Source: Archaeoglobus fulgidus DSM 4304 (lineage in GTDB: Archaea > Halobacteriota > Archaeoglobi > Archaeoglobales > Archaeoglobaceae). Taken from it: DNA of 32,000 bases. The notes beneath the pieces were generated by a model. That model was not told the origin of the DNA and did not search any database. It saw only the letters and a program-made list of their open reading frames with translations. The first letter of the stretch is position 1, and each line of letters begins with the position of its first letter. The DNA lies in the NCBI RefSeq assembly GCF_000008665.1, contig NC_000917.1, positions 660,001-692,000 of the forward strand, read 5' to 3'. Below, piece after piece: positions 3,206-31,604 of this stretch. Made by a program: the position numbers and the translations under genes.

Positions 3206-4816
3206 TCAAAAAACCCTGATTATCTCCCCCATCCCCTTGCTCCTTCCCTCCCTGAAGATGAACTTCTGGCCTTCGTAAACGAAGTGGGGGTGATATTTGA
3301 ACTTCATTCTCACTATTCCTCTGTCTCCGGGCTTGAGGTATTCCTTATCCATCTCAACAAACGTCACAGTCTCTGAAATGGTTTCGACGTGCATAACCGG
3401 CTCGTAGCCGACGCTGATTAGGGTTGGGTGGGTGAAGACGTAAATCTCAGCATCAAACTCCCAGACAGCCCTTGGCTCTTTCCTGCTTATGACCATTCCC
3501 CTCCTCAACTCGTCGTACCTTACTCCTTTGACTGCAGCACCAATTATGTCTCCCGCCTTTGCTCTGTCGATTCTGTAGTGGTGCATCTCTATGCTCTGAA
3601 TCCTCACCCTCCTGAAGCTGCCATCCTGAAAGGGTCCGATGTAAACCTCATCGCCCTCAGCAAGTTCTCCGCTCTTCACGCTCCCGCTCACGACTGTCCC
3701 CACTCCAGTAACACTGTAAATCTTGTCGATGTACATGAGGAAGTCTTCGTCAGCAGTATAGCGCTTTGGCAGGTGCAGGAAAATCTCCTCAAGGATGTCG
3801 TAGCCCTCCAGAGTAACAGCAGAAGTTATGACTACGGGAACGAGAAGTTTGTTGCTTTTTACCATCTCAGCAGCTTTTCTGGCGTCGTGCCTTGACTTCA
3901 GGACGGTTGGAACCCTCCCAACTCTCCTGAGAGTGGCTGATATCTCCTGCAAAACCTCACTGAGTCTCGCATCGTCGACCATGTCCGCCTTGGTTACAGC
4001 CACGATGACGGGCAAATCCATCGCGAGCATTATTCCGAGGTGTTCTTTTGTCGTTCTCATCACACCATCGTTTGCAGCAACCACGAGGAGGCCGTAATCG
4101 ACCTTCTGCCCCAACAGACCTCTTATGGTAGTCCTGAGCCACGGCTCGTGGCCTACGGTGTCAACGAAGCTCACCAGCTTGTCGGCCGTTTCAACAACCA
4201 TTGCTTTCTCTGCCTTGCTCAGCGGATTTTTCATTCTCAGAACTTTTCCGTCTTTGTAACCGAAAACGGCAAAGCTTATTTCAGCACTCAGCCCCCTCTC
4301 AATTTCGTGCTTCAGAACGTCTAAATAAACTCTCGTCGCGCCATCCCCATCGTCTGGCTTTCCCGTGATGAGGCAGCCGACGAGCGTTGATTTCCCGTGG
4401 TCAACATGTCCCGCTGTTCCTACCAATATGTGCTCCTTCGCCTTTGTCTTCCTTATCTCCACCAACCCCACGTAGCCTCCGTTAACCTCATGCCTCTCAA
4501 CGGAGCTTACCTCAGCCTCAATTTCGGTGGCAAGCTTTTTCAAAACCTCAATGGTTTCGGAAAATTTGTTTTCATCAATACCCTTTATCTCACCGCTGTC
4601 TGACACGCCAACAACGTAAAGAGCCACACCCTTTCCCATTATAATCCTGTGGTTCATCTGGCAGGCGAGCTGCCTGAACCTGCCCTCTTTAAGGTGAAAG
4701 TTGCCCAAGAACTCCTTGAACTCTACGTTTTCTCCCTCTCCCCTCTCCAGGAGCTTGAGGATTTTTTCCACAATTAAATTTCCATGTTGGGGATTTAATT
4801 TTTCCGATTGGAGCAC
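3206..4816 (-). CDS. GTPBP1/EF-Tu-like translational GTPase (EF-1alpha paralogue)
   Basis: G1 GHVDHGKSTLVG, G3 DTVGHE and G4 TKAD are present, followed by EF-Tu-type beta-barrel domains. I moved the start to GTG 4816, because the track's ATG 4903 overlaps pyrD and a minus-strand TTTATTTT box sits about 26 nt upstream of 4816. Confidence 0.85.
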   Translation of the reverse strand: MLQSEKLNPQHGNLIVEKILKLLERGEGENVEFKEFLGNFHLKEGRFRQLACQMNHRIIMGKGVALYVVGVSDSGEIKGIDENKFSETIEVLKKLATEIEAEVSSVERHEVNGGYVGLVEIRKTKAKEHILVGTAGHVDHGKSTLVGCLITGKPDDGDGATRVYLDVLKHEIERGLSAEISFAVFGYKDGKVLRMKNPLSKAEKAMVVETADKLVSFVDTVGHEPWLRTTIRGLLGQKVDYGLLVVAANDGVMRTTKEHLGIMLAMDLPVIVAVTKADMVDDARLSEVLQEISATLRRVGRVPTVLKSRHDARKAAEMVKSNKLLVPVVITSAVTLEGYDILEEIFLHLPKRYTADEDFLMYIDKIYSVTGVGTVVSGSVKSGELAEGDEVYIGPFQDGSFRRVRIQSIEMHHYRIDRAKAGDIIGAAVKGVRYDELRRGMVISRKEPRAVWEFDAEIYVFTHPTLISVGYEPVMHVETISETVTFVEMDKEYLKPGDRGIVRMKFKYHPHFVYEGQKFIFREGRSKGMGEIIRVF

Positions 4817-4822
4817 CAAACC

Positions 4823-4829
4823 TTTATAA
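4823..4829 (+). promoter_or_regulatory. TATA box for pyrD (leaderless)
   Basis: TTTATAA is centred about 25 nt upstream of ATG 4851. Confidence 0.5.
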
Positions 4830-4838
4830 TGTCCATGC

Positions 4839-4846
4839 AAAATAAA
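4839..4846 (-). promoter_or_regulatory. TATA box for the GTPase gene (leaderless GTG 4816)
   Basis: The minus strand reads TTTATTTT, centred about 26 nt upstream of GTG 4816 and back-to-back with the pyrD TATA. Confidence 0.45.
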
Positions 4847-4850
4847 CACG

Positions 4851-5750
4851 ATGAACCCGCTGGAAACGGAGATTGGCGGTTTAAGAATGAAAAACCCTCT
4901 CATGCTTGCAAGCGGGATTATGGGCAGTAAGGTTCACTCCCTCAATCTCATCGCGCGGGATGCGGGAGCGGTTGTTACAAAGTCTGTCGGTGTTGAGGAG
5001 AGGGAGGGCTACAGGAATCCGACCGTCGTAAACTGGAAATGCGGGCTGATAAACGCAGTTGGACTAGCTTCTCCTGCGGCCAAAGATTTTGCCGAGGAGC
5101 TGAAGGACTACACGAATGAGGCACCTCTCCTCATAAGCCTCTACGGACATTCCGTTGAGGAGTTTTCCGATCTCGTTGACACCTTTGACTCCGCTCTTCC
5201 CTATCTCCACGGTTACGAGCTAAACCTCAGCTGCCCTCACGTGAAGGGAGCGGGCCTCGATATAGGAATGGACCTTGAGCTTTCAGCGGCAATAGTTGAG
5301 GAGCTGAAAGGAAAGACGAAGAACCCAGTTTTTGCCAAGCTGTCAGCGATGCACGACTACCTGAAGCTCGCAAAGGTCCTTGAGGATGCCGGAGTTGATG
5401 GAATAACGATATCAAACACTCTCAGGGGAATGAAGATAGACATAATGTCTGGAAAGCCGGTTTTGAGCAACCTCTCTGGCGGTGTGAGCGGGCCGGCAAT
5501 CAAGCCCATAGCCCTAAAGTGCGTTTACGACCTCTACAAGGAAATCGAGGTTCCAATAGTGGGCTGTGGGGGGATAACGAGCTTTGAGGACGTTCTTGAG
5601 TTTATAATGGCAGGTGCAAGGGCCGTGCAGATAGGCTCGGCGGTTTACTACAGCCGGAGAATTTTCTACAGCCTGAAGGAGAGCCTGATAGCCTTTACGA
5701 GGGCAAGAGACTGCACAATCTCCGACCTCATCGGAATCGCCCACAGCTGA
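4851..5750 (+). CDS. pyrD: Dihydroorotate dehydrogenase, class 1 catalytic subunit
   Basis: N-terminal LKNPLMLASG, an NLSCPH active-site region, and ISNT...GGVSGPAIKP...GCGGI FMN-binding motifs are present. Confidence 0.9.
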   Translation: MNPLETEIGGLRMKNPLMLASGIMGSKVHSLNLIARDAGAVVTKSVGVEEREGYRNPTVVNWKCGLINAVGLASPAAKDFAEELKDYTNEAPLLISLYGHSVEEFSDLVDTFDSALPYLHGYELNLSCPHVKGAGLDIGMDLELSAAIVEELKGKTKNPVFAKLSAMHDYLKLAKVLEDAGVDGITISNTLRGMKIDIMSGKPVLSNLSGGVSGPAIKPIALKCVYDLYKEIEVPIVGCGGITSFEDVLEFIMAGARAVQIGSAVYYSRRIFYSLKESLIAFTRARDCTISDLIGIAHS

Positions 5751-11373: not shown

Positions 11374-12840
11374 TCAGATTGCCCTGTAAACGCTGAAGTT
11401 CATGCAGGAGACGTCGGTGAGGGGCTCTCTGAACGCAAGGAACGCTGGAATCCTTTGCAACTCTGGTGTGGTCCAGAAGGTCCAGCATCTGACGACCATG
11501 GTCTCCACGAACTCCAGATTTGTCTTGTCCAGCCTCATGTCGTTGGTCGCGTTGACCACGATGTAATTTCCAGAGATGAAGCTTCTCCCCTCAACACCCG
11601 TCGTTATGAAGTAAGCCCTGTGGTCCCTGAGGTACCATGCAAGGGGCCAGTACTCTCCAACACTCGTGAAAACGTAAACCGTCTCATTTTTCGTTTTCTC
11701 CGCGAACTCTCTGACGTCGTACTGGGTTGGGAGGTAAAGGGCAGGCTCTGCAGGATTAACCGGGTTGATGTGGTTAACATGGATAGAACCGTAGGCTGAG
11801 AAGAGAATGCAAAGTGCGGCGAGCGCGGAAATCTTTTTTCCATCCAAATCAAGCCTGCTCAATCCGATTCCCGTGAGGAGATACATGGGGAAGAGGATGT
11901 GGACGTCGAGCCACGGAACCTTTTCCTGCATGTAGGAGAAGAAAATCAGACTGCTGAGGAACCAGTAGGCCGCAAAAGCCTCGAAGTTCGTTCTTTTCTT
12001 GATTATAACATACACCGCAAATGCTGCAGCCAGAAAGGCCGGCAAATCGTAGAGAAGGATGAGTTCGAGGTAGTAGTACCACGGTCCGGCAATTCTCGCT
12101 ATATCGTGCTGGTACTTCCAGTAGCTCACAGCTTTCACGGCCGGAAACTCTGAGAAGTTCGTCAGAGGGGTGGTGTAAGTGAAGAAATTGGTGTAAAAGG
12201 CCGAGTATATGGCGAAAAAAACCGCAATTGAAACTGCCAGATCGGAGAGCCTGAATTTTTTGACGTCAAAAATGAAGTACAGCAGGAAGATTGCCGCTAT
12301 TGGATAAAAGGTCTCCTTCAGCGTGGCGAAAAGAGCGAGGAAGGTAAAGGCCGCTACCAGCAGCAGCGTGTCCCTGTCCAGCTTGAAGTCTGTTAGCCTC
12401 TTCTCCCTTTCAAGGTACCTGAAAATGAAGTAAACGAAGAGGGCGGTGAAGAGAAGCTGGAAGATGTCCGCCCTGCAGAACCTCGAGTAGTTCACGATTA
12501 CCGCCGAAATCGTCACAAGAGTTGAGGCTATCAGCGCTGCCTTACTCCCAAGAAACCTTCTGTAGAGGAGGGGTGTAAGAGCCACAACCACGCCGGTAAT
12601 GGCGGGAAGGATGCGCAACGAAAACTCGCTTTCCCCCAGCAGCTTAACAGGAGCGTAGAGGATGTAGTAAAGCAAAGGGCCATGATAGGCGGGGTCGTAC
12701 CTGTAGGTTCCCTGAAAGAGGGATTTCAGAATCGTAGCGTGAATGCTCTCGTCGAAGAATAAGGGTGGGAGGGAGAGGTTGTAAAGCCTTATCAGAGATG
12801 CTATGATGAGCAGGACGATGACCGGGAGAGTTCTCCTCAT
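11374..12840 (-). CDS. Polytopic GT-C type glycosyltransferase (PMT/ArnT family 39-like)
   Basis: There are more than 10 predicted TM helices. The first-loop acidic motif FFDESIH matches the GT-C DE motif. A soluble C-terminal domain follows. Confidence 0.7.
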   Translation of the reverse strand: MRRTLPVIVLLIIASLIRLYNLSLPPLFFDESIHATILKSLFQGTYRYDPAYHGPLLYYILYAPVKLLGESEFSLRILPAITGVVVALTPLLYRRFLGSKAALIASTLVTISAVIVNYSRFCRADIFQLLFTALFVYFIFRYLEREKRLTDFKLDRDTLLLVAAFTFLALFATLKETFYPIAAIFLLYFIFDVKKFRLSDLAVSIAVFFAIYSAFYTNFFTYTTPLTNFSEFPAVKAVSYWKYQHDIARIAGPWYYYLELILLYDLPAFLAAAFAVYVIIKKRTNFEAFAAYWFLSSLIFFSYMQEKVPWLDVHILFPMYLLTGIGLSRLDLDGKKISALAALCILFSAYGSIHVNHINPVNPAEPALYLPTQYDVREFAEKTKNETVYVFTSVGEYWPLAWYLRDHRAYFITTGVEGRSFISGNYIVVNATNDMRLDKTNLEFVETMVVRCWTFWTTPELQRIPAFLAFREPLTDVSCMNFSVYRAI

Positions 12841-17509: not shown

Positions 17510-18043
17510 GTGAAAGCTGAGACGACGACTGGTGTAGAGGAGCTGCTGAACGAGCTTGTTGGGAGGGCCGCTGGTGAGGTTGGTTTGATTCTCTTTTCGC
17601 TTGGCATTGAGGGTGAGTTTACCGATGACCAGCTTTCCCTTGAACTCGGAATAGAGATTAACGAGATAAGAAAGGCTCTGTTTGCGCTATACGAAATAGG
17701 TCTGGCGGACTACGTGAGGAGAAGGGACGACGAGACAGGGTGGATGGAGTACTACTGGCGGATAAACTACGACAAAGCGCTGGACGTGCTCAAAAGGGAG
17801 CTTGAGAAGACTGCAAAAAAGCTGAGGGAGAAAATAGAGGCCGAGACGAGCACCATCTACTACATTTGCCCCAACATGTGCGTCAAAGTTTCGTATAACG
17901 ATGCGATGGAGCTCAACTTCACCTGCCCACGCTGCGGGGCGATGCTTGACTACCTGGACTGCAGCAAGGCTATAGAGAAGATTGAGGAGGAAGTGAGGAG
18001 GATAGAGGAGATTCTGGAGTCTTTAGATAAAAATTCGGGTTAG
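17510..18043 (+). CDS. tfe: Transcription factor E (TFE alpha, TFIIE-alpha homologue)
   Basis: A winged-helix N-terminus (IRKALFALYEIGLADYVRRRDDETGWMEYYW) is followed by a zinc ribbon (CPNMC...CPRCG). GTG start, with an A/T-rich box about 30 nt upstream. Confidence 0.85.
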   Translation: MKAETTTGVEELLNELVGRAAGEVGLILFSLGIEGEFTDDQLSLELGIEINEIRKALFALYEIGLADYVRRRDDETGWMEYYWRINYDKALDVLKRELEKTAKKLREKIEAETSTIYYICPNMCVKVSYNDAMELNFTCPRCGAMLDYLDCSKAIEKIEEEVRRIEEILESLDKNSG

Positions 18044-18957
18044 GTGGAAAACAAAACTTGTCTGAATATAACAATAATTTCGTGAACGTTGCTAAGTTTA
18101 ATGCTTGCCATCGCATTTTCCGAGTTCGAGCATCTGCGGTAGGACGTTTTAGTATCATCCAAGGTTGTGTTAAAAACGTCTCCACTCCTCTCAAAAAACC
18201 TGCACCAAGCATCCTTGTTTTCCGTACCCCTCAAAATTACATAGGCATCGTTGAAGTCCTGCCCAAGGTTGCTGACGCTTATTAAGCTCACATTGCTGTT
18301 TCCCTCATTCAAAACAAACCTAAATCTCCCTGAGCCCCCTATGGACAGCTCACCATCCAGCAAAGGAATTGTCATTACGAGAAATCTTTTTCCTGGTGTG
18401 GAGAGGGTTGCGTTGTAGAGAATTCTCGGCTCGTATAGCAACTTTGAGTAATCCTGGTTAGAGTACTTTGAAAAAACGCTTCCCGCTTCCAGCGTTAAAA
18501 ACCAGTCCTTGTATCTGTAAACAATTTTTCCGATGGTGTGGTTAAGGGTGCACGCTGAGAAGTTGTAACCGGTGTGAGTGCAGGCAGTATAAAGCCTTCC
18601 AGTGGAGAGGTTTATGCACAATGGAACGGAATTTGGAACTCTGCCGCACGGCAAGTTTGAGGGATTCGTTTCAGTGTAGTTGACGAATGCTACAATGAAC
18701 TCCGGATCACTTTTGTCAAGAGTTAAGGTCCCTCCCTGCAGTTCTATTTCAACCGCCTGAGAAGGAACCTCTCCAAAGGAAACGGAATGGATGATGTACT
18801 GTATCTTCTTGAAGCTCTGCTCCAGACTCTGCGACATGACGCTCCTCTTCATGTCCTCCGTCATGGTGTTAACCTGAACAAAAACAATGGCAAGTACGGC
18901 CATCACAATTCCAAAGATGTACATGTAGCCCAGAATCTCCGATACGGCCTTGCTCAT
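18040..18957 (-). CDS. Class III signal peptide (archaeal type IV pilin-like) protein, gene 6 of 6
   Basis: The N-terminus is MSKA-VSEILGYMYIFGIVMAVLAIVFV. At least 7 N-X-S/T sequons and several Cys are present. An ATGA overlap joins it to the upstream gene. Confidence 0.65.
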   Translation of the reverse strand: MSKAVSEILGYMYIFGIVMAVLAIVFVQVNTMTEDMKRSVMSQSLEQSFKKIQYIIHSVSFGEVPSQAVEIELQGGTLTLDKSDPEFIVAFVNYTETNPSNLPCGRVPNSVPLCINLSTGRLYTACTHTGYNFSACTLNHTIGKIVYRYKDWFLTLEAGSVFSKYSNQDYSKLLYEPRILYNATLSTPGKRFLVMTIPLLDGELSIGGSGRFRFVLNEGNSNVSLISVSNLGQDFNDAYVILRGTENKDAWCRFFERSGDVFNTTLDDTKTSYRRCSNSENAMASIKLSNVHEIIVIFRQVLFST

Positions 18958-19742
18958 GTGACCTCAACCCTCGTGAAAATTATGCTGATGTCGCCACTGG
19001 CTTTCTTAATTTTTATCGTGTTGTCGATGCAGTCATCATCCTCGAAATCAGCGGGCTTTGACGGAACGTCGTTTAGCGCTTTTTCGAAAGATTTTTTCCA
19101 TATATCGCAGAATTCCGACTTAAGTTCAAAGGAGGTTACGTTGCTGAAAATTGTTGTGAAGTTGTGTTTGAAGTTGATAGTGATTTTTTGTCCTCCGGCA
19201 GAGTAATCTCCTATAAAGTCGTAGATTGACAGGTATAGCGTGTCGTTGGTGACTATGATGTCAGGTTCGGATATGGGAATAGGATTTACCGAGCCATACT
19301 CCTTAACGAATATTCCCGACTCGAACACGATTTCCCTTCCTGCGATTTCAATGTTAAGCGTATGCGTGTACCAGTCAACCTCTATGTCGTGAGCAGCATG
19401 AATGATTGCATTGATGTTAGGATTAGGATTTCCCTGCAACCCGGGTGGGAGTTCGGTAGTAAAAACTGTGAAATTGAAAAATCTCGCATTCGACATGCTC
19501 CCACCGTTGAGCTGAATAACTTTAGACGTTGCAACCTCACTGCCGTACTTCATTCTCTGCACAATTTCCTTGATTTCGGCCATGTTTTTTACGGCGTTCT
19601 GGTAGTTCACGTTGTCTATGGAGTTTGCTATAACTGGATGCGAGATTACGTAGATTATTCCGGCTGCGGTGACTATGACTACAACTGTAAGTAGTGCTCC
19701 CACAACTTCTGAAACGCCGTTGTTATTCAAGTGATATAGCAC
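18954..19742 (-). CDS. Class III signal peptide (archaeal type IV pilin N-terminal domain, DUF1628-like) protein, gene 5 of 6
   Basis: NNNG-VSEVVGALLTVVVIVTAAGIIYV is present. The track start is GTG 19742. TTG 19730 (MNNNGVSEVVG) has better spacing (9 nt) from a GGGAGGTG SD. Confidence 0.7.
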   Translation of the reverse strand: MLYHLNNNGVSEVVGALLTVVVIVTAAGIIYVISHPVIANSIDNVNYQNAVKNMAEIKEIVQRMKYGSEVATSKVIQLNGGSMSNARFFNFTVFTTELPPGLQGNPNPNINAIIHAAHDIEVDWYTHTLNIEIAGREIVFESGIFVKEYGSVNPIPISEPDIIVTNDTLYLSIYDFIGDYSAGGQKITINFKHNFTTIFSNVTSFELKSEFCDIWKKSFEKALNDVPSKPADFEDDDCIDNTIKIKKASGDISIIFTRVEVT

Positions 19743-22602
19743 CTCCCTCTCCCTTTCTTATTGTAACTTTGTCCCTATCGGACTGAATCAGAAGCTTGCA
19801 TTTCCCGTCAGCGGGCGTTGTGCCGGCAGGACACTGCGTGGTTTCTTGGCCAAGATAGTTGAGGGCGGTAAATTCAATGTAGGATTCGGTAGCTCCGTCA
19901 ATATTTATATCGTAGGTTCCCTCCGGCGCATCCTCTTTCACCTTCAGCTTCACAACAAGCTCAACAACCTCGTCTTTCTGTATTGACTGAAGGTCTATTT
20001 TTATTACTGTCTTGTCCGCTAAGTGCTCAACCTGTAGATTTACAGGGGTGCCCTTGTTGGACGTTGCATGTGCGCTGACGAACTCAAAAATACCACCCGT
20101 AGAAACGTTCACAGTCTCATGTATTGAGATGTTCTTTGCGGCTATCTGGAATATGTTGAAAATGGTCTTGTAGGCTTCAATAAGCTCCTCGCTGGTTGTA
20201 GCGAAGAAGTAGCACGCTTCGCCGTTGTCCGGACGGGGTGAGGCTATATCTCTAAGGAAAGCCTGCCCGTCACTGCCTATATCCGTCCCGAATCCGATTG
20301 TACAAATTGGTATATTGAAGCCATTAACCTTTATGTTTCTCTTTATATAATCTGCCACACATAATGCCTGTTGAGCACCATAATGCCCGTTATCCCTGAC
20401 ACATTTGTTTTTACAAGTGTTGTTGAAGTAGTCTTCATTTTTGTCGCATGTTGTTGTCTCACCGTCAGTCAGCAATATCATCAACGGGCGTGTGTTGTTT
20501 ATGCACTCTGTGCAGTTGTTCTGTGTTTCGTCAGGCCATATCGGAAATACTTTCACTCCCCAGTACAGGGCGTCGGCGTGGTCTGTCGCCAGTTTAGCGT
20601 ATAATCCCTCGATTTCATTGTTCACTCTGAGTTTATCCTTAGTCATATACTTGAGTGGTGTCTGATTAACTGAAATCCTCTCAGCATATGTTGTGAATGT
20701 TGCTAGACCTACGAAGTCACCCTCTCCAAGCATGTTATTGAAAGTTATTGCTGCCAATTTTGCGGCATCCATTCTTTTCATAACAACTTTTGGTTCTATG
20801 ACAATACTTTCTTTTGTCAATGGAACAATTATGATTTTATAAGTTCCCGGAGTGGGGTTTGGTACAAAAAAGTCCGAATAAAAATCGTATCCATAATTGT
20901 TCCAAGCGTAATACCACCCATAATAGTTCCCATCATAATATCTCTTCAGAACATATGTTTTCTCGGATGGTCCCACCACCCATTGGTCAAGGAGGACATT
21001 TTCTCCGTCATAGGTGAAAGAATTGTAACCACATATTCTCTCAATATATCTCCAATATCTTACTCTATCGTCTACTGTGTAATACTCGATTGTATTCCAA
21101 TCGCTCCAATACGCGTTACTCCAATACGGCGTGTGGTCCAGTCCCGTAATTGCCAACCACTTATACTCAACCAATCCCGGCAGCTCAAAGCTGATTTCCT
21201 GATAGTTCTCATAGGGAACGGTTTGATTTAGAATCTCTTCTGTAGAATTAAATTTAACGAGGATCGTTAAATTTATTTGCTTGGGGGCTCTCGCTACAAC
21301 CTCAATTGTGTAGTTACCCGGACCGACAGTGTCGGAATAGTACTTGCCCAACTTTGCTCCTTCTGAGTACTCGTTACCACTTTCCACATTATTAACATAC
21401 AATCTAACAAAAGAGGCGTCATACCCTTCACCGTACCAAGGACAGTTGGCATAACATGCCTTACAGGCATCATCTGTGTACCATTCTGGAAGTCGGTCAG
21501 TCGTGTAAGCCCAAATTTCAAGTTTCCCAGAATCAGTAAGATTTATTGTTTTCCTTACAATTTTGGGAACAACAGTTACAGTATAGTTTTTGTATATTGT
21601 AGGGTCCATCATGCTCCCGGAAACATCAACCACATGCACAGTAGAGAGGTTAATTGCCTGATTTACAAACCCTCTGCCCTCCAACCTCAGATGAACTTCA
21701 AAAGTCTCTCCCGGAGAAACGTCTTTTGGCTCGACCCACTTGTCGTAAACCAAGTAAGGGTTTGACTGCGCCGGCTGCTCAGACACAAGCAGAGATTGAG
21801 TATAGGTTCCATTACATCTTAAATTTCCGTTTTCGGTGTATTCTGGCTCATCAATCCATGCAAAGATTTCTGCCTTGCATTCGTATTCATAAGTTCCAAC
21901 TTGGTTGCAGCCAGTAATGTCATCAACTTTAATATCAAAGCTGGCTGACTTTTCAGTTCCATGTATAACCGTTCCATTCCAGAGGGTGATATTCCAAGCC
22001 ACATTTTTTGTTATTTCGTCAGAGTTATCAAAGTACACGTCCACTTCGGTGCTGCCTCCCTTCTCAATACTGCTTGGCGAGAACTTAAACCGGGGTTTGA
22101 CTTCAAAAGGACACTCCTCCTCTCTCCCATAAACAATTTCAGGTTTCTCTTCTTCACCTTCCGCCTTTGTGCTTATAAACTCACCCTGGGCGTTTATTTC
22201 AAGCTTTTCTCCGTTTGGAAGGATGAACTTGTCCAATCCAAGCCCGCTCGCAGACTCAAATTCACCCGTGGTGCTTTTTACTCTCACAAAAACGTTGCTT
22301 CCTTCCTTTTCCAACTTAACGTTGTACTCATAGTCACCAACTTCAGGTAAAATGGACACCTTCGTTTTAATGTAGCCAGAGGGCGGCCTGAGCAAAATGT
22401 AGTCTGTGTAAAAGGCAGAAATCTGGGAAGCCACATCGGCAAACTGGTTTTCAACAACCCTTGAAACCTGAGCTTCAGTGAGTGTGTCGTGGATTGATAA
22501 GCCTAAGATTACAACAAACACTCCTAGAATAGCGGTGAGTAGCAAATACTCTAAAAGTAACGAAACTCCCCTTTCATCGGGCTCAACAATCACTTCCCGC
22601 AC
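19723..22602 (-). CDS. Giant modular pilin-like protein with class III signal-anchor, beta-sandwich repeats and a vWA/MIDAS domain
   Basis: The N-terminus is EPDERG-VSLLLEYLLLTAILGVFVVILGL. MIDAS elements are VHVVDVSGSM, LATDHADAL and ILLTDGETT, with ICTIGFGTD. About 15 N-X-S/T sequons are present. Start set to GTG 22602 (GGAGGTGGAT SD 4 nt upstream) rather than the track's TTG 22632. Confidence 0.7.
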   Translation of the reverse strand: MREVIVEPDERGVSLLLEYLLLTAILGVFVVILGLSIHDTLTEAQVSRVVENQFADVASQISAFYTDYILLRPPSGYIKTKVSILPEVGDYEYNVKLEKEGSNVFVRVKSTTGEFESASGLGLDKFILPNGEKLEINAQGEFISTKAEGEEEKPEIVYGREEECPFEVKPRFKFSPSSIEKGGSTEVDVYFDNSDEITKNVAWNITLWNGTVIHGTEKSASFDIKVDDITGCNQVGTYEYECKAEIFAWIDEPEYTENGNLRCNGTYTQSLLVSEQPAQSNPYLVYDKWVEPKDVSPGETFEVHLRLEGRGFVNQAINLSTVHVVDVSGSMMDPTIYKNYTVTVVPKIVRKTINLTDSGKLEIWAYTTDRLPEWYTDDACKACYANCPWYGEGYDASFVRLYVNNVESGNEYSEGAKLGKYYSDTVGPGNYTIEVVARAPKQINLTILVKFNSTEEILNQTVPYENYQEISFELPGLVEYKWLAITGLDHTPYWSNAYWSDWNTIEYYTVDDRVRYWRYIERICGYNSFTYDGENVLLDQWVVGPSEKTYVLKRYYDGNYYGWYYAWNNYGYDFYSDFFVPNPTPGTYKIIIVPLTKESIVIEPKVVMKRMDAAKLAAITFNNMLGEGDFVGLATFTTYAERISVNQTPLKYMTKDKLRVNNEIEGLYAKLATDHADALYWGVKVFPIWPDETQNNCTECINNTRPLMILLTDGETTTCDKNEDYFNNTCKNKCVRDNGHYGAQQALCVADYIKRNIKVNGFNIPICTIGFGTDIGSDGQAFLRDIASPRPDNGEACYFFATTSEELIEAYKTIFNIFQIAAKNISIHETVNVSTGGIFEFVSAHATSNKGTPVNLQVEHLADKTVIKIDLQSIQKDEVVELVVKLKVKEDAPEGTYDINIDGATESYIEFTALNYLGQETTQCPAGTTPADGKCKLLIQSDRDKVTIRKGEGGAISLE

Positions 22603-22900
22603 AATAATCCACCTCCACGTTCTTAAACTCAACCTTATCTACCCCAACATAACAAACCCATCCATTTTTGGCGCATAGCGTCTGTATTTGCGAATTGACC
22701 TCACTGTCCCCTCCAAAGTTCTTCTGGATTTCCTCCAGATTCCTGATTTCCTCTTTAGGGAAGGCGAGCATGGCCCTTGAGCTTTCCACACCCGCAATAA
22801 TGTTCTGGGCGTAAACATAGGACAGAGTTAGAACGACAATCACAACTACGAATGCAAAGAGGAGTATCATCTGCCCCTTCTCATCCATTATGTTCTCCAT
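22583..22900 (-). CDS. Small class III signal peptide (pilin-like) protein, gene 3 of 6
   Basis: MDEKGQ-MILLFAFVVVIVVLTLSYV is followed by a Cys-rich C-terminus. A GGAGGTGA SD lies 12 nt upstream of ATG 22900. An alternative ATG at 22888 forms a TAATG overlap with the upstream stop. Confidence 0.65.
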   Translation of the reverse strand: MENIMDEKGQMILLFAFVVVIVVLTLSYVYAQNIIAGVESSRAMLAFPKEEIRNLEEIQKNFGGDSEVNSQIQTLCAKNGWVCYVGVDKVEFKNVEVDYCAGSDC

Positions 22901-23376
22901 AGCGTTAACCTCACCTCCACAACTTTGGTTGTTGGCGTGGTTAAGTTAAAGCACTCTGAATTGTTTAAATCCTGGACAACAACAAACCTGCTCACCCTAA
23001 CAGCGTCGGGCGTGGGTGTTTTGTTAAATCCGTAAAGCGCATGGCTTTCAATTTTTGAGCCATTAACCCATATCAGCTCAACCTTCCCGAAGGCATTTAG
23101 ACTATCGAGAATTTTTGACAGGTTCGCATTAAATTCGTCAGGGGCTTTGAAGCCGGATGAGCAGTTCACAATTGCCCCCTTTAAGGATGAGTTGCCACCA
23201 TCTGAGTCAAAAACTCTTAGGATGTCATATCCAAGCTGCTTTAGCTGAACGTTAGCGTAATCGCTCCAGGAGGGGGCGATGACAACGGTGCTCTGGAAGA
23301 TGGTGTAAACTGCGAGGAGAATGAGCAGTGAAGCAGCAACCCCTTCGAGCGTGAAGGTTTGCCCCCTCAAATCCAT
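22888..23376 (-). CDS. Class III signal peptide (TadE/pseudopilin-like RGQ motif) protein, gene 2 of 6
   Basis: MDLRGQ-TFTLEGVAASLLILLAVYTIF is present, with 7 N-X-S/T sequons. Start at ATG 23376, with a GGAGGTGG SD 4 nt upstream, rather than the track's 23403. Confidence 0.7.
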   Translation of the reverse strand: MDLRGQTFTLEGVAASLLILLAVYTIFQSTVVIAPSWSDYANVQLKQLGYDILRVFDSDGGNSSLKGAIVNCSSGFKAPDEFNANLSKILDSLNAFGKVELIWVNGSKIESHALYGFNKTPTPDAVRVSRFVVVQDLNNSECFNLTTPTTKVVEVRLTLWRT

Positions 23377-23939
23377 ACCGCCACCTCCAATTTGCAAACA
23401 CACCTTTCCGCGATGCTTTCACAGGGTATTGCGGTGCAGTTGTCAACGTAAACCAGCCTGTCAAACTTGATGATGTTGCCCATTTCAGGCAAATTATCCC
23501 CACCGCTTACGATTTCTGTGTCATTGAGGTACTTCAGGCTGAAGTAGAACTTATACTTAAAATTCGTAGAATTCAGTCCCAAGTAATTCCTCACAGTGTC
23601 CCTGCAGGCCGAGTTGCTTAAAAGCTCTTGTAGCTTGAATATTTTGGATGTATTGAGGTAATTGTATTCTGTTCCGTTGTTTTCGTCAAATATTGCCAAT
23701 CCGGGTCGAAATTCTTTGCTAATACAGTTGGAGGTGTCAACCGCAGTGCACCAGTCATCTGGATACCCCGGATCCTCCACAAGCAAAGCAGCAACACGAT
23801 ACGCATGACTTCCGAGGGCAATCTCATGCCTTACGTCGGCAAAAATCCCCGGCAGAAAGTTGGCTACGAATAAGAAGGTGGTGAGAAATATTGAAAGTCC
23901 TAGCAACAGGTCTAAGCTCAGTTTAGCTTGGTTGTCCAT
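23367..23939 (-). CDS. Pilin-like signal-anchor protein, gene 1 of 6
   Basis: MDNQAK-LSLDLLLGLSIFLTTFLFV is followed by a Cys-rich, sequon-rich extracellular-looking domain. The cleavage motif is less canonical than in the other five genes. Confidence 0.55.
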   Translation of the reverse strand: MDNQAKLSLDLLLGLSIFLTTFLFVANFLPGIFADVRHEIALGSHAYRVAALLVEDPGYPDDWCTAVDTSNCISKEFRPGLAIFDENNGTEYNYLNTSKIFKLQELLSNSACRDTVRNYLGLNSTNFKYKFYFSLKYLNDTEIVSGGDNLPEMGNIIKFDRLVYVDNCTAIPCESIAERCVCKLEVAVWI

Positions 23940-23964
23940 ATCATAAAAAATAGGATGTTAATCC

Positions 23965-23972
23965 ATTTAAAT
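23965..23972 (-). promoter_or_regulatory. TATA box for the six-gene pilin-like operon
   Basis: The palindromic ATTTAAAT is centred about 29 nt upstream of ATG 23939. Confidence 0.4.
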
Positions 23973-28989: not shown

Positions 28990-29060
28990 GGGAATCAGAA
29001 GCTTTATTACCTCATCATCCCCGCAGAGCCTTATCGTGGCATCTCCAGTTTTTACCTCAG

Positions 29061-29225
29061 TTACCTTGCCACTCTGCTCCCCTGCTCTGCTTTCAGCCCA
29101 CCCACTTCTATTTCTGCATAACTCACCTTAGCATAATTTACAAGAAAGCTGCAGAGATTAGGAAGCGTACTTTCAAGGTCATCCGAGCAAAGCATCTCAA
29201 GGGCTTCAATTGCACTTTTTTCCAC
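29061..29225 (-). CDS. 54-codon ORF upstream of the kinase; possibly the displaced original N-terminus of the kinase gene
   Basis: GTG 29225 is preceded by a minus-strand AAGTTTAAAT box about 25-30 nt upstream. It translates to VEKSAIEALEMLCSDDLESTLPNLCSFLVNYAKVSYAEIEVGGLKAEQGSRVAR*. The kinase frame is open across 29127-28990. Confidence 0.3.
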   Translation of the reverse strand: MEKSAIEALEMLCSDDLESTLPNLCSFLVNYAKVSYAEIEVGGLKAEQGSRVAR

Positions 29226-29422
29226 ATCAATTTTCGTTGTTTATCAACATTTAAACTTTATCTTGTTTAGGCGCAAGAGTAGCATTTTATCCTCTGTTTC
29301 TTTTGCAGCATGTTGATGATAATTATTATTTACGTAATAATGGTCATTGTTATTACAATTATGCTTACATGATAGTAAAATTTATATATCACAAGGTTTA
29401 ATAATGACTGAGGTGATGAAAA

Positions 29423-29491
29423 ATGGAGAGGAAGGACGAGAGAAAGGAAGCGGAGAAGGTGTTCAAGGAGATTAAGATATTTGCAGGTTAA
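29423..29491 (+). CDS. 22-codon upstream ORF coupled by TAATG to the UbiA-family gene
   Basis: A GAGGTGAT SD lies 5 nt upstream of ATG 29423. It encodes MERKDERKEAEKVFKEIKIFAG*, and its stop overlaps ATG 29491. Confidence 0.3.
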   Translation: MERKDERKEAEKVFKEIKIFAG

Positions 29492-30360
29492 TGATATTTG
29501 AAATAATAAAGATCGGGTCTCAACCAATAAATTTTGCTTATCCTATACCTTTACTATCTCTTTTGGCATTCATGCTCTCAGGGTCTGGCTATAACGAGCT
29601 TATTATTTCGTATATTTTCGCATTTTCATTTTTTACAGCCGCTAACCTTTGGAATCACCTAAATGATGCTGAAGATGATCTTAATGCCGGTCGTAACTAT
29701 GCAAGATTTCTTATTGAACATCGCAAAATCGTGACAGAATTTGTCGTTGCTTTTTATTTTGTATCTTTTTTATTAATATTTTTTATATCAAAAAGTAAAG
29801 AAATTGCATTACTATTAACAGGATTATCTGTCGTTTTAACTTGGCTTTACTCTGATAAAATTTTTATTGGAAAAATTATCAGACGATTCAAAGAGGATTA
29901 CAAGACTGAAGTATTTACATATATTTTGTGTTCGTTTTCTTTTCCACTAAGTTTTTGGACCATTTTTTCTGAAATTTCTCAAGTTGGAGTGGTTTTTACT
30001 TTGGCTACTGGATTTACATATCTCTCGGGTTTCTTCTTAAAAGACTTAAAAGACATTTCTGCCGATATAAAATCTGGTTACAGAACATTAGCCGTAGTTC
30101 TTTCACCCAGCACTTTATTGATAATATCGGTGATGTTGTTTATTGCCTCAACTTTTGTCGTAATTTTTTCATCATTGTTAGATGTGACTCCTACCAGTTC
30201 CTTGCTAGTTCTCACAGTATATCCCCCCATTTTGTTCGCAATCTACAAATTTCATAAAGAAAAATGGAAAATAACTAAAAATATTATTTCTTCTTTAAAA
30301 ATTTACACTTACTCTTATCTAGGTTTTTTAATTGCCTTTGCTATAGGTTGTAAACTGTAA
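29491..30360 (+). CDS. UbiA-superfamily membrane prenyltransferase
   Basis: About 8-9 TM helices are predicted. Two Asp-rich motifs are present: NHLNDAEDDLNAGRN (NxxxDxxxD-type) and KDLKDISADIKSGYRTLAV (DxxDxxxD). The gene is very AT-rich. Confidence 0.8.
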   Translation: MIFEIIKIGSQPINFAYPIPLLSLLAFMLSGSGYNELIISYIFAFSFFTAANLWNHLNDAEDDLNAGRNYARFLIEHRKIVTEFVVAFYFVSFLLIFFISKSKEIALLLTGLSVVLTWLYSDKIFIGKIIRRFKEDYKTEVFTYILCSFSFPLSFWTIFSEISQVGVVFTLATGFTYLSGFFLKDLKDISADIKSGYRTLAVVLSPSTLLIISVMLFIASTFVVIFSSLLDVTPTSSLLVLTVYPPILFAIYKFHKEKWKITKNIISSLKIYTYSYLGFLIAFAIGCKL

Positions 30361-30369
30361 TAATTAAGC

Positions 30370-30378
30370 AAAAAAAAA
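30370..30378 (-). terminator. T9 terminator tract after the 349-aa ORF
   Basis: The plus strand has A9, which is T9 on the minus strand, starting about 10 nt downstream of the TAG at 30388-30390. Confidence 0.5.
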
Positions 30379-30387
30379 CGTGGAGTA

Positions 30388-31604
30388 CTATAAATTAAGA
30401 AACACTGTCGACAACGTTGTGTTTAAACAAATTTTTTCTTCTACTTCACTCATTGATCTCTTCTGCATTTTACCTGTGTACGACGGGAAAGACACTAAAA
30501 CGCCGTATACATCTTTTCCCCGAAAAACATTTACAATCCAATCCTCGAACATTAACATAATATTCTGGTCAACGAAAATAAAGTCAAACTTTTCTGAGTT
30601 TATTACTAATTTTATTCTATCCAACCCACCTTTCAGCTGCTCTCCTAAAAATAATCCCTCGTCATAAAATATATCTAAAGTAAAAAAGGAAGGATAAAAT
30701 TTTAAATTATAATCCATCAATCCTAAACATGTAGAACCATTAGTTTCTTTGCTGATTAAAGCTAAAATGTAAGGTGACGCTCCGAATATGCCCTCTCTGT
30801 TAACATCGTTTTCCAAATCACCTCTCATTCTTAAATTATGAGACCTTAAGAATTCTCTTATACTCATATTATTTATTTTTGCTATGGACAAATTTCCTTT
30901 GCTTATGGCAACATCTTCAATGAACTGGAATTCTTTCTTTAAAATTTTCTTAGTTTCTTCAACATCAGTTCCTCTTTCAGGTAAGAAGTCATCATATTTT
31001 GTGCCAAAATTTTTATCAATAGTTAGAAGAATTACACTCCTCCCAATATTAGAACCATTTATTGCTATCTTTGGTTTACCAATACCAAAATTTAGAGGGA
31101 AGAGATTAAGCGAAACAGCGTTTGCTTTTTCATCTCTGAATGGACGCAAAAGCGTATTTATAGGATATATCGCTTCTTTAAATATTCTAGATGCCTCCTC
31201 AACGTTTCTTGCCATTTTAAGTCTTAAAAAGCTACTTAAAAAAGAATATCTACTATCAACATAAAACAGCGGATAGACCAGCAAATTGAACCTCCCCTTC
31301 TCAGCGCTTCTCAACTGCTCGACCACCTCGTCTGGATTACCCCTGAAAACGTTCAGAGTGTAGTCGATGTCGGCAAACATGCACAGGCATCCGCGAGTCC
31401 ACACGCCATCGGGAGTTATAAACCCTTCAACAGGCACCAGAGCGTGTCAAAATCGAATTTGAACACCTTTGCATCTTTCTGCAGATGCTCGGTGAGGTAA
31501 ACTATCGCGAGATTTGGCCTGAAGTCCAAATTCTCCGCTTTGGACCTGATTTCATCAAACGCCTTTTTGGGGTCATTTTTCAGACTGTATGCGAACTCAA
31601 TCAT
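30388..31604 (-). pseudogene. Sensory-domain-like gene (possibly FIST-type) split by a frameshift into 62-aa and 349-aa ORFs
   Basis: ORF 31604-31416 ends ...KFDFDTLWCLLKGL*. ORF 31437-30388, in another frame, starts (V)PVEGFITPDGVW. Joined they would read ...FDFDTLVPVEGF... The family call is weak. Confidence 0.4.

Follow-up and report, generated by a model that had tools for sequence, protein, structure and literature searches.

What might a hyperthermophilic sulfate reducer build with six overlapping genes whose products all bear, at the N-terminus, a short polar leader and then a hydrophobic helix, and which stand apart from any gene for assembling a type IV pilus (T4P)? The question is raised by a stretch of 32,000 nucleotides of the Archaeoglobus fulgidus DSM 4304 genome (NC_000917.1, positions 660,001 to 692,000; hereafter the window), in which six consecutive open reading frames (ORFs), here called P1 to P6 from the first to the last in the direction of reading, span positions 18040-23939 of the minus strand. 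Our analysis indicates that these genes probably constitute one operon for the subunit set of a clade 2 (system 2) T4P, with P4 as its adhesin and the assembly machinery encoded in trans. Since it belongs to a T4P system that is already known and in print, the locus is not new: the six genes were listed in 2016 as 'clade_2' T4P pilins (Makarova, Koonin and Albers 2016, PMC4858521, Table S4). The novelty implied by the sequence-only reading, an annotation of this DNA made by a model from the letters alone, thus does not stand, and the present findings leave the published classification unchanged. What we add is the recognition that the arCOG03926 protein of A. fulgidus, P4, is a modular pilin with a von Willebrand factor A (vWA) domain, in which the metal ion-dependent adhesion site (MIDAS) is intact and a large insertion is conserved.

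With 660000 added, the window coordinates give the gene coordinates of that table, in which P6 (678040-678957) and P5 (678954-679742) are assigned to arCOG02911, P4 (679723-682602) to arCOG03926, P3 (682583-682900) to arCOG06552, P2 (682888-683403) to arCOG04652 and P1 (683367-683939) to arCOG06117, a 'predicted pilin', all on the minus strand (PMC4858521). The flanks agree as well: TFIIE-alpha lies at one end of the set, and Rpl7Ae, RPS28 and RPL24 lie at the opposite end. By exact sequence, this locus is present in many assemblies. The arCOGs 06117, 04652, 06552/07777, 03926 and 02911 appear to correspond to the Pfam families DUF7287, DUF7288, DUF7266 and DUF7289.

Archaeal T4P are well catalogued and poorly understood, and most 'system 2' loci are without a known filament or function. 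In a recent survey, most system-2 loci were not associated with visible pili, functions beyond filament formation were suggested, and the role of the A. fulgidus loci was described as not known (Sivabalasarma and Albers 2026 preprint). The present locus, encoding a pilin body that bears an intact MIDAS, offers a concrete and testable candidate for surface attachment by a hyperthermophilic sulfate reducer.

P4 and its split vWA domain

P4 (19723-22602, minus strand; GTG start, 959 aa) is composed of modules that can be delimited from its sequence and its AlphaFold2 (AF2) model. Residues 1-150 (22153-22602) comprise a class III-like signal (MREVIVEPDERG/VSLLLEY) and the DUF7266/arCOG03926 pilin module, which is followed by two beta-sandwich spacer domains (residues 151-312; 21667-22152) and by the first vWA strand with the MIDAS motif DVSGS (residues 313-333; 21604-21666; D326, S328, G329 and S330). 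A beta-rich insertion of about 270 residues then interrupts the vWA domain beside the MIDAS (residues 334-604; 20791-21603); the rest of the domain, with MIDAS residues T673 and D713-G714, occupies residues 605-818 (20149-20790), and one or more C-terminal beta-sandwich domains with a weak MG2-like Pfam match complete the protein (residues 819-959 and the stop codon; 19723-20148). The AF2 model has a mean predicted local distance difference test score (pLDDT) of 83.7 and a predicted template modelling score of 0.69 overall. It places a 53-residue N-terminal helix (12-64) before a small beta sheet (77-143), the spacers at a pLDDT of mostly 80-90, the first vWA strand with DVSGS at residues 318-330, and the insertion as an all-beta structure with a pLDDT above 90.

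The sequence-only reading had proposed a vWA/MIDAS module in the fourth product, and this proposal is borne out by the alignment of 26 homologues, in all of which D326, S328, G329, S330, T673, D713 and G714 are invariant. The insertion is likewise a family trait: the spacing from the MIDAS serine to the threonine (S330 to T673 in the alignment) amounts to 320-443 residues in each of the 26. In P4 itself, Pfam VWA_2 matches residues 609-715 with 21.9 bits, below the cut-off of 27, and 17 of the 26 homologues match VWA or VWA_2, at best with an E-value of 1e-10. All full-length homologues retrieved by a word-indexed search belong to the Archaeoglobales (40-75% identity); more distant ones (24-31% identity) combine PKD and VWA domains, with PKD at the position of the spacers. 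Metal binding and ligand adhesion by the vWA domain of P4 are putative functions.

When the P4 family profile was compared with the sequences of the PDB, the top match was 7b7p, the PilB protein of Streptococcus sanguinis (E 6.7e-5), in which both halves of the split vWA domain were aligned and DTSGS stood opposite the DVSGS of P4. A Foldseek search with the P4 model retrieved the vWA structure 4fx5 (E 1.5e-9) and the pilus-tip adhesins SpaC, GBS104, Mfa5, PitA and PilB at E-values from 2e-9 to 3e-5 (3e-6 for PilB). The TM-scores in this search are low (0.14-0.26), as can be explained by a multidomain protein whose parts are differently arranged.

Among 1.84 billion representatives, searched exhaustively with the P4 family profile, there are free-standing proteins of 148-153 aa that align only to positions 1-157 of this profile; these are DUF7266 proteins of Methanococcoides and Syntropharchaeales. 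Over 106 aa, residues 9-114 of P4 share 32% identity with a free-standing 148-aa DUF7266 pilin of Methanococcoides (E 2e-16). The module was recognized at the N-terminus in 13 of the 26 members of the P4 family, and elsewhere it is fused to PKD and VWA domains or, in a 1623-aa protein, to PKD and four DUF7507/DUF11 repeats. These findings are evidence for DUF7266 as a carrier module of archaea, to which adhesin domains of several kinds are attached. In this light, sequence and model together describe P4 as a modular pilin, in which the DUF7266 pilin module is followed by beta domains and by a vWA domain that is itself interrupted by an insertion. Proteins with the DUF7266 module, either fused or free-standing, are P0200, P0204 and P0215, from the representative search, and P0258, P0265, P0280 and P0296.

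Gene layout, N-termini and the smaller subunits

The other five genes, for which we give the likeliest starts, all lie on the minus strand like P4: P1 at 23367-23939 (ATG start, 190 aa), P2 at 22888-23376 (ATG, 162 aa), P3 at 22583-22900 (ATG, 105 or 101 aa), P5 at 18954-19730 (TTG, 258 aa, or 262 aa from an alternative GTG at 19742) and P6 at 18040-18957 (ATG, 305 aa). From P1 to P6, the successive junctions overlap by 10, 13 (or 1), 20, 20 (or 8) and 4 nt, and each downstream gene has its Shine-Dalgarno sequence inside the preceding one, of the GGAGGTG type for P2 to P5 and GAGGT for P6; in these respects, the arrangement is as the sequence-only reading had described it. Translational coupling between neighbours, and with it a fixed stoichiometry of the products, may be expected from such junctions. 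P1 is the sole gene of the six with no upstream Shine-Dalgarno sequence. A TATA-like box (TTTAAAT), read from the sequence at 23965-23971 of the minus strand, 26-32 nt upstream of the ATG of P1, is the likely promoter of the operon; its position, given the normal archaeal spacing between TATA box and start, points to a leaderless or near-leaderless mRNA. At the other end, tfe (17510-18043, plus strand) and P6 overlap tail to tail by 4 nt (18040-18043), which leaves no intergenic room for a terminator of either gene. The locus tags are probably AF_0758 to AF_0763, as judged from GI numbering and from L7Ae being AF_0764.

The GC content of the operon is 44.2%, and that of the flanks is 48.9% and 50.4%; the contrast itself had been noticed before, at an estimate of about 42% that was slightly low. 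Recent horizontal transfer was considered as its cause and is not supported. The set occupies the same site between tfe and rpl7ae in the closest relatives, L012 and L013, where the six operon proteins share 59-80% identity with those of A. fulgidus, and the flanking Tfe, L7Ae and S28e share 93-100%; the lower GC content is thus not a sign of recent transfer. The low identity of the six proteins relative to their flanks fits fast-evolving surface proteins. Conservation within the set is strongest in P2 and P3 (79-80% identity to L012 and L013).

The products are rich in N-X-S/T sequons and in cysteine, as the earlier reading had held. P1 to P6 contain 5, 7, 0, 16, 4 and 7 sequons, respectively; their density is 1.97 per 100 aa in the operon versus 0.37 in the 24 other proteins of the window (a 5.3-fold enrichment), and cysteine reaches 1.97 versus 1.13 per 100 aa. 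The proteins may be glycosylated at these sequons. On the Kyte-Doolittle scale, each of the six has one hydrophobic segment, within residues 4-43, and such a single N-terminal segment is seen in no soluble protein of the window. The polar leaders and hydrophobic helices that had been read from the ORFs were confirmed, as were the N-termini themselves.

As a class III signal we counted a short polar leader and a [KRDE][GA] site at the very start of the protein, with a hydrophobic H-domain of about 20 residues directly behind the site. The residues at positions -2 and -1 are QA, RG, KG, RG, NG and KA in P1 to P6, so that canonical sites are present in P2 (RG/Q), P3 (KG/Q), P4 (RG/V) and P6 (KA/V). 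These same four genes carry a 'yes' in the column of Table S4 that we take to be FlaFind. Across orthologs, the motifs are xG/KLSLDLLIG for P1, [KR][GA]/QTFTLEG for P2, [KR]G/Q for P3, [KR]G/VSxLxEY for P4 and [KR][AG]/VSE for both P5 and P6. At the N-terminus of P5 (19716-19730), Asn stands at -2 (NNG/VSE) where the aligned orthologs mostly have Lys or Arg; at that of P1 (23922-23939), QA/K stands where most orthologs have G/K. Owing to these non-canonical sites, the processing of P1 and P5 in the A. fulgidus strain is uncertain and may be weak or absent.

Profile hidden Markov models (HMMs), which had been suggested as a check of the prepilin families, place four of the smaller proteins above the Pfam cut-off of 27 bits and support DUF7266 at the N-terminus of P4 at the family level. 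P1 belongs to DUF7287/arCOG06117 (36.5 bits); its N-terminus, MDNQA/KLSLDLLLG, precedes a hydrophobic segment at residues 5-36 and has a motif that is kept in 23 orthologs. P2 belongs to DUF7288/arCOG04652 (64 bits) and has an archaellin-like [KR][GA]/Q site (MDLRG/QTFTLEG), of which Q6, F8, T9, L10, E11 and G12 are invariant among 16 homologues. P3 (N-terminus ...DEKG/QMILLFAFVV) is a small arCOG06552 protein with 4 Cys and a weak N-terminal match to DUF7261 (18.9 bits), and its [KR]G/Q motif is kept in 22 orthologs. P5 (MNNNG/VSEVVG; 36.7 bits) and P6 (MSKA/VSEILG; 51.5 bits) are both members of DUF7289/arCOG02911; with 19% identity over their full length (E 2e-4), P6 can be regarded from the alignment as a distant paralogue of P5. 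The AF2 model of P2 (pLDDT 82.1) consists of a kinked N-terminal helix (10-29 and 37-56) and an alpha/beta domain with four antiparallel strands. A resemblance of this model to ribosomal protein uS3 was rejected, as the Foldseek matches were at chance level.

Synteny, assembly genes and the rest of the window

For synteny, we used 21 Archaeoglobi loci, one genome per species, a set to which A. fulgidus DSM 4304 itself does not belong. The order P1-P2-P3-P4-P5-P6 is unchanged in every locus long enough to judge. In L011, the six genes directly follow T2SSE (PilB) and T2SSF (PilC); in L022, they lie 1.3 kb after PilB/PilC; and in L024, a PilB/PilC pair is adjacent to them and divergent. In A. 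profundus, the set adjoins a convergent TadC/FlaI pair (Table S4, Makarova 2016).

Two variants of the set occur in Archaeoglobi, either with arCOG07777 and a small arCOG03926 protein (130-136 aa) or with arCOG06552 and a giant one (790-959 aa). The small form is found in A. profundus (set at 611520-615190) and A. sulfaticallidus (set at about 1324752-1326927), and the giant form in A. fulgidus (959 aa) and A. veneficus (790 aa; set at 99386-103529), by the coordinates of Table S4. The giant P4 thus co-varies with arCOG06552 instead of arCOG07777, which suggests an altered division of labour among the subunits.

The window itself contains no PilB/FlaI, PilC/TadC or A24 peptidase gene by Pfam searches of its other genes, nor a PilB or PilC by tblastn with module-linked queries. 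The earlier view that the motor is encoded elsewhere is upheld: Table S4 places FlaI/TadC pairs at 591632-595008 and 896237-899903, a lone FlaI at 308760-310547, an A24 prepilin peptidase at 836770-837492 and a stand-alone PilA-family pilin at 983795-984220, in addition to FlhG-type ATPases and an archaellum locus (PMC4858521). A 511-aa PilB (T2SSE with PilB3_N) and a 614-aa T2SSF are located on the same 169-kb A. fulgidus contig as the module. This PilB, which belongs to one of the two pairs and was the one used for comparison, is 62% identical to the module-linked PilB of L011, whose closest relative in A. profundus is a PilB that does not adjoin the module there. The segment at NC_000917 591223-591660 (9349-9786 of L033) has no detectable counterpart beside the module-linked PilB/PilC genes of L011, L022 and L024.

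Two kinds of euryarchaeal clade-2 T4P have been distinguished, one PilA-based and one of the Haloferax volcanii PilB4-locus type with its own pilin set, for which arCOG02911 was named a minor pilin (PMC4858521). The same authors noted that ATPase/TadC modules often serve pilin sets encoded in trans, and named the Archaeoglobales explicitly. For an archaeal major pilin that is encoded away from the locus of minor pilins and assembly genes, EpdE of M. maripaludis is a published precedent.

Some other parts of the window deserve mention. It contains no tRNA or Rfam element. At 29000-31500, the GC content falls to 31-36%, against 48% for the window, and this island looks like foreign or recently acquired DNA; it includes a UbiA-family prenyltransferase gene (29491-30360, plus strand; 25% GC at third codon positions) and a 349-aa ORF (30388-31437, minus strand) with 5 sequons and no Pfam or NCBIfam match. 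A gene of the N-glycosylation pathway lies about 5 kb from the pilin operon (11374-12840, minus strand; TIGR03663, 'flippase activity-associated protein Agl23', E 8e-132). The gene at 3206-4903 (minus strand) encodes an unusual fusion of 565 aa, in which an EF-1alpha/SelB-like translational GTPase carries an N-terminal Schlafen AlbA_2 domain.

A putative pilus and its relatives

How would such a system work? The operon would be translated with coupling between neighbouring genes to give P4, the modular adhesin, together with five pilin-like proteins of small or medium size, and all six would enter the membrane via their N-terminal hydrophobic helices. The single A24 prepilin peptidase of the genome, encoded about 153 kb away, would trim P1 to P6, and one of the two PilB(FlaI)/TadC pairs, the nearest of them 83 kb away, would act in trans to extract and polymerise the subunits. 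P4 would be anchored in the filament by its DUF7266 module and would display the beta-sandwich spacers and the MIDAS vWA domain with its large inserted 'arm', serving as a metal-dependent adhesin, for which the filament tip is the most probable place. P1, P2, P3, P5 and P6 would be minor pilin-like subunits and, as the minor pilins of bacteria suggest by analogy, would probably make up an initiation or tip complex that carries P4. The bulk of the filament might consist of P3 or of a pilin from another locus, for example the stand-alone PilA. The size of P4, its likeness to tip adhesins and the modelling of S. sanguinis PilB, in which steric clashes were found in the filament body and the tip was favoured (Raynaud et al. 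2021), together suggest that P4 is sub-stoichiometric and most likely located at the tip.

Several observations weigh against this reading. The class III layout claimed for all six proteins holds for P2, P3, P4 and P6, but P1 (QA/K) and P5 (NG/V) are without the canonical charged residue at -2 in the A. fulgidus strain, and neither has a 'yes' in the presumed FlaFind column of Table S4. The generic profiles for pilin N-termini remain below threshold, Pilin_N (PF07790) with 17.7 bits on P6 (cut-off 25.2) and TIGR02537 (archaellin/pilin N-terminal) with 19.4 bits on P5 (cut-off 20); in the Pfam and NCBIfam scans, neither matched P1, P2, P3 or P4. The Foldseek search of the PDB with the P2 model retrieved no significant solved pilin (best E 0.026), a result that neither supports nor refutes a pilin fold. 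PilB/PilC genes lie within the 5-10 kb flanks in only 3 of the 21 Archaeoglobi loci. The module-linked PilBs of different Archaeoglobi, moreover, belong to different PilB/TadC pairs, so no partner ATPase can be named for the A. fulgidus set; these relationships fit the published idea of recombination between motors and pilin sets. The naming of arCOG03926 as 'predicted major pilin' of the PilB4-type set (PMC4858521) conflicts with a role at the tip only. Finally, as the sequence-only reading had supposed, we found in the literature no experimental study of these six genes or of A. fulgidus pili and nothing of relevance on the families DUF7287, DUF7288 and DUF7289, and the CsmR paper contains nothing on the A. 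fulgidus pilus set.

Some of these points would be explained if the six products were ordinary Sec-inserted type II membrane glycoproteins, unrelated to T4 filaments, whose pilin-like N-termini are coincidental, as the unusual sites of P1 and P5, the sub-threshold N-terminal profiles and the fold search with P2 might suggest. We consider this most improbable: the same layout is repeated in all six consecutive proteins, the [KR][GA]/Q and [KR][GA]/VS motifs are kept across orthologs, the set repeatedly adjoins PilB/PilC in relatives, P4 is homologous to small DUF7266 pilins, and four of the six genes have a 'yes' in the Table S4 column. A short structure that is not a filament, be it a pseudopilus or a stalk anchored in the membrane, is harder to dismiss, though still unlikely; it would resemble the pseudopilus of type II secretion or the Sulfolobus bindosome and would present the vWA domain at the surface or through the S-layer. 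The operon encodes no obvious major pilin, five pilin-like proteins with one large protein resemble sets of minor pilins or pseudopilins, and the 2026 survey found most system-2 loci without visible pili and suggested other functions; however, standard PilB/TadC genes are found linked to the set, just as they are in filament-forming systems, and the genome has a stand-alone major pilin of the PilA family. The sequence itself does not separate a pseudopilus from a pilus.

It is also conceivable that P4 is the major repeating subunit, the filament being a thick polymer of 100-kDa subunits that each show a vWA domain, with the other five as minor pilins. The published label of arCOG03926 speaks for such a polymer, as do the 130-136 aa pilins at the same gene position in A. 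profundus and A. sulfaticallidus and the homology of the N-terminal module of P4 to such small pilins. However, it would be difficult to pack some 810 additional residues in each subunit, S. sanguinis PilB was modelled to clash in a filament body, the giant form co-varies with arCOG06552 and not with arCOG07777, and two other candidates for the major subunit exist, the small sequon-free P3 and the stand-alone PilA. We therefore regard a polymer of P4 as distinctly unlikely, and the 'major pilin' label probably misfits the 959-residue vWA protein of A. fulgidus. A clade-2 T4P subunit set with P4 as its adhesin is the reading that we favour.

A bolder idea, to which we give a rather low chance, is that the six-gene set is a portable 'tip and priming cassette', in which arCOG03926/DUF7266 carries interchangeable adhesin domains and which uses different PilB/TadC motors in different Archaeoglobi and primes filaments of a major pilin from another locus, such as the stand-alone PilA. 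The interchangeable domains on the DUF7266 carrier may then be vWA, PKD plus vWA, or DUF7507/DUF11. If this is true, the two 'types' of clade-2 pilus would merge into one machine, and modular pilins together with priming complexes of minor pilins would have arisen in archaea in parallel to bacteria.

Among known systems, the closest is the clade-2 or system-2 'PilB4-type' pilin set, which has the same arCOGs (06117, 04652, 06552, 03926 and 02911 twice) in the same gene order as the present locus, and the same association with FlaI/TadC, the ATPase/TadC genes often being encoded in trans. Within this kind, the distance from the set to a PilB/TadC pair differs between the 83 kb of A. fulgidus and the adjacent position in A. 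profundus. The published work on clade 2 does not describe the arCOG03926 member of A. fulgidus as a modular pilin with a vWA/MIDAS domain.

The bacterial sets FimU-PilVWX-PilE with PilY1 and TadE/TadF/TadG, which the sequence-only reading had invoked, resemble the locus in combining several co-transcribed pilin-like proteins with one large vWA adhesin. The genes of these sets lie away from that of the major pilin, and their products are believed to be located at the tip and to start assembly. P4 is a pilin, which PilY1 is not. Kinship with the Tad or PilY1 systems was dropped, since neither the TadE-like domain (PF07811) nor the PilY1/PilC beta-propeller (PF05567) has a match in P1 to P6 at E <= 1, and the likeness is one of analogy only. 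The tip adhesins of sortase pili (SpaC, GBS104, RrgA and PitA) and of type V pili (Mfa5) also present, like P4, a vWA domain with inserted arms on beta-sandwich stalks at the pilus tip, and they are among the top structural matches to P4 (E 2e-9 to 2e-6; TM-scores 0.14-0.26). Unlike P4, they have no class III signal, and their assembly chemistry, by sortase or strand exchange, is unrelated.

In design, P4 is most instructively compared with PilB of S. sanguinis (7b7p), a minor pilin that has been modelled at the filament tip and mediates adhesion (Raynaud et al. 2021). In both proteins, there is a class III signal with a pilin module at the N-terminus, and the MIDAS vWA domain has inserted 'arms'. 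However, PilB is bacterial, and its N-methylated pilin module (IPR012902) has no detectable kinship to DUF7266 of P4. PilB is also smaller: it has 426-461 aa, and the spacing from its MIDAS serine to the threonine is 83 residues (S208 to T291), against the 959 aa of P4 and the 320-443 residues across its homologues. P4 further has two additional beta domains, about 270 residues inserted into its vWA domain, and a beta domain at the C-terminus. The two proteins are alike in design and homologous in the vWA part only. The 'carrier pilin + effector module' design was described in bacteria from a census by the bacterial pilin signature, in which archaea were not mentioned (Raynaud et al. 2021). 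As the Pfam and NCBIfam searches found no IPR012902 or bacterial N_methyl match in P4, nor N_methyl in the other five proteins at E <= 1, P4 is best viewed as an archaeal analogue and not as a member of the published modular pilin family. The modular-pilin design known from bacteria recurs on an unrelated archaeal pilin scaffold.

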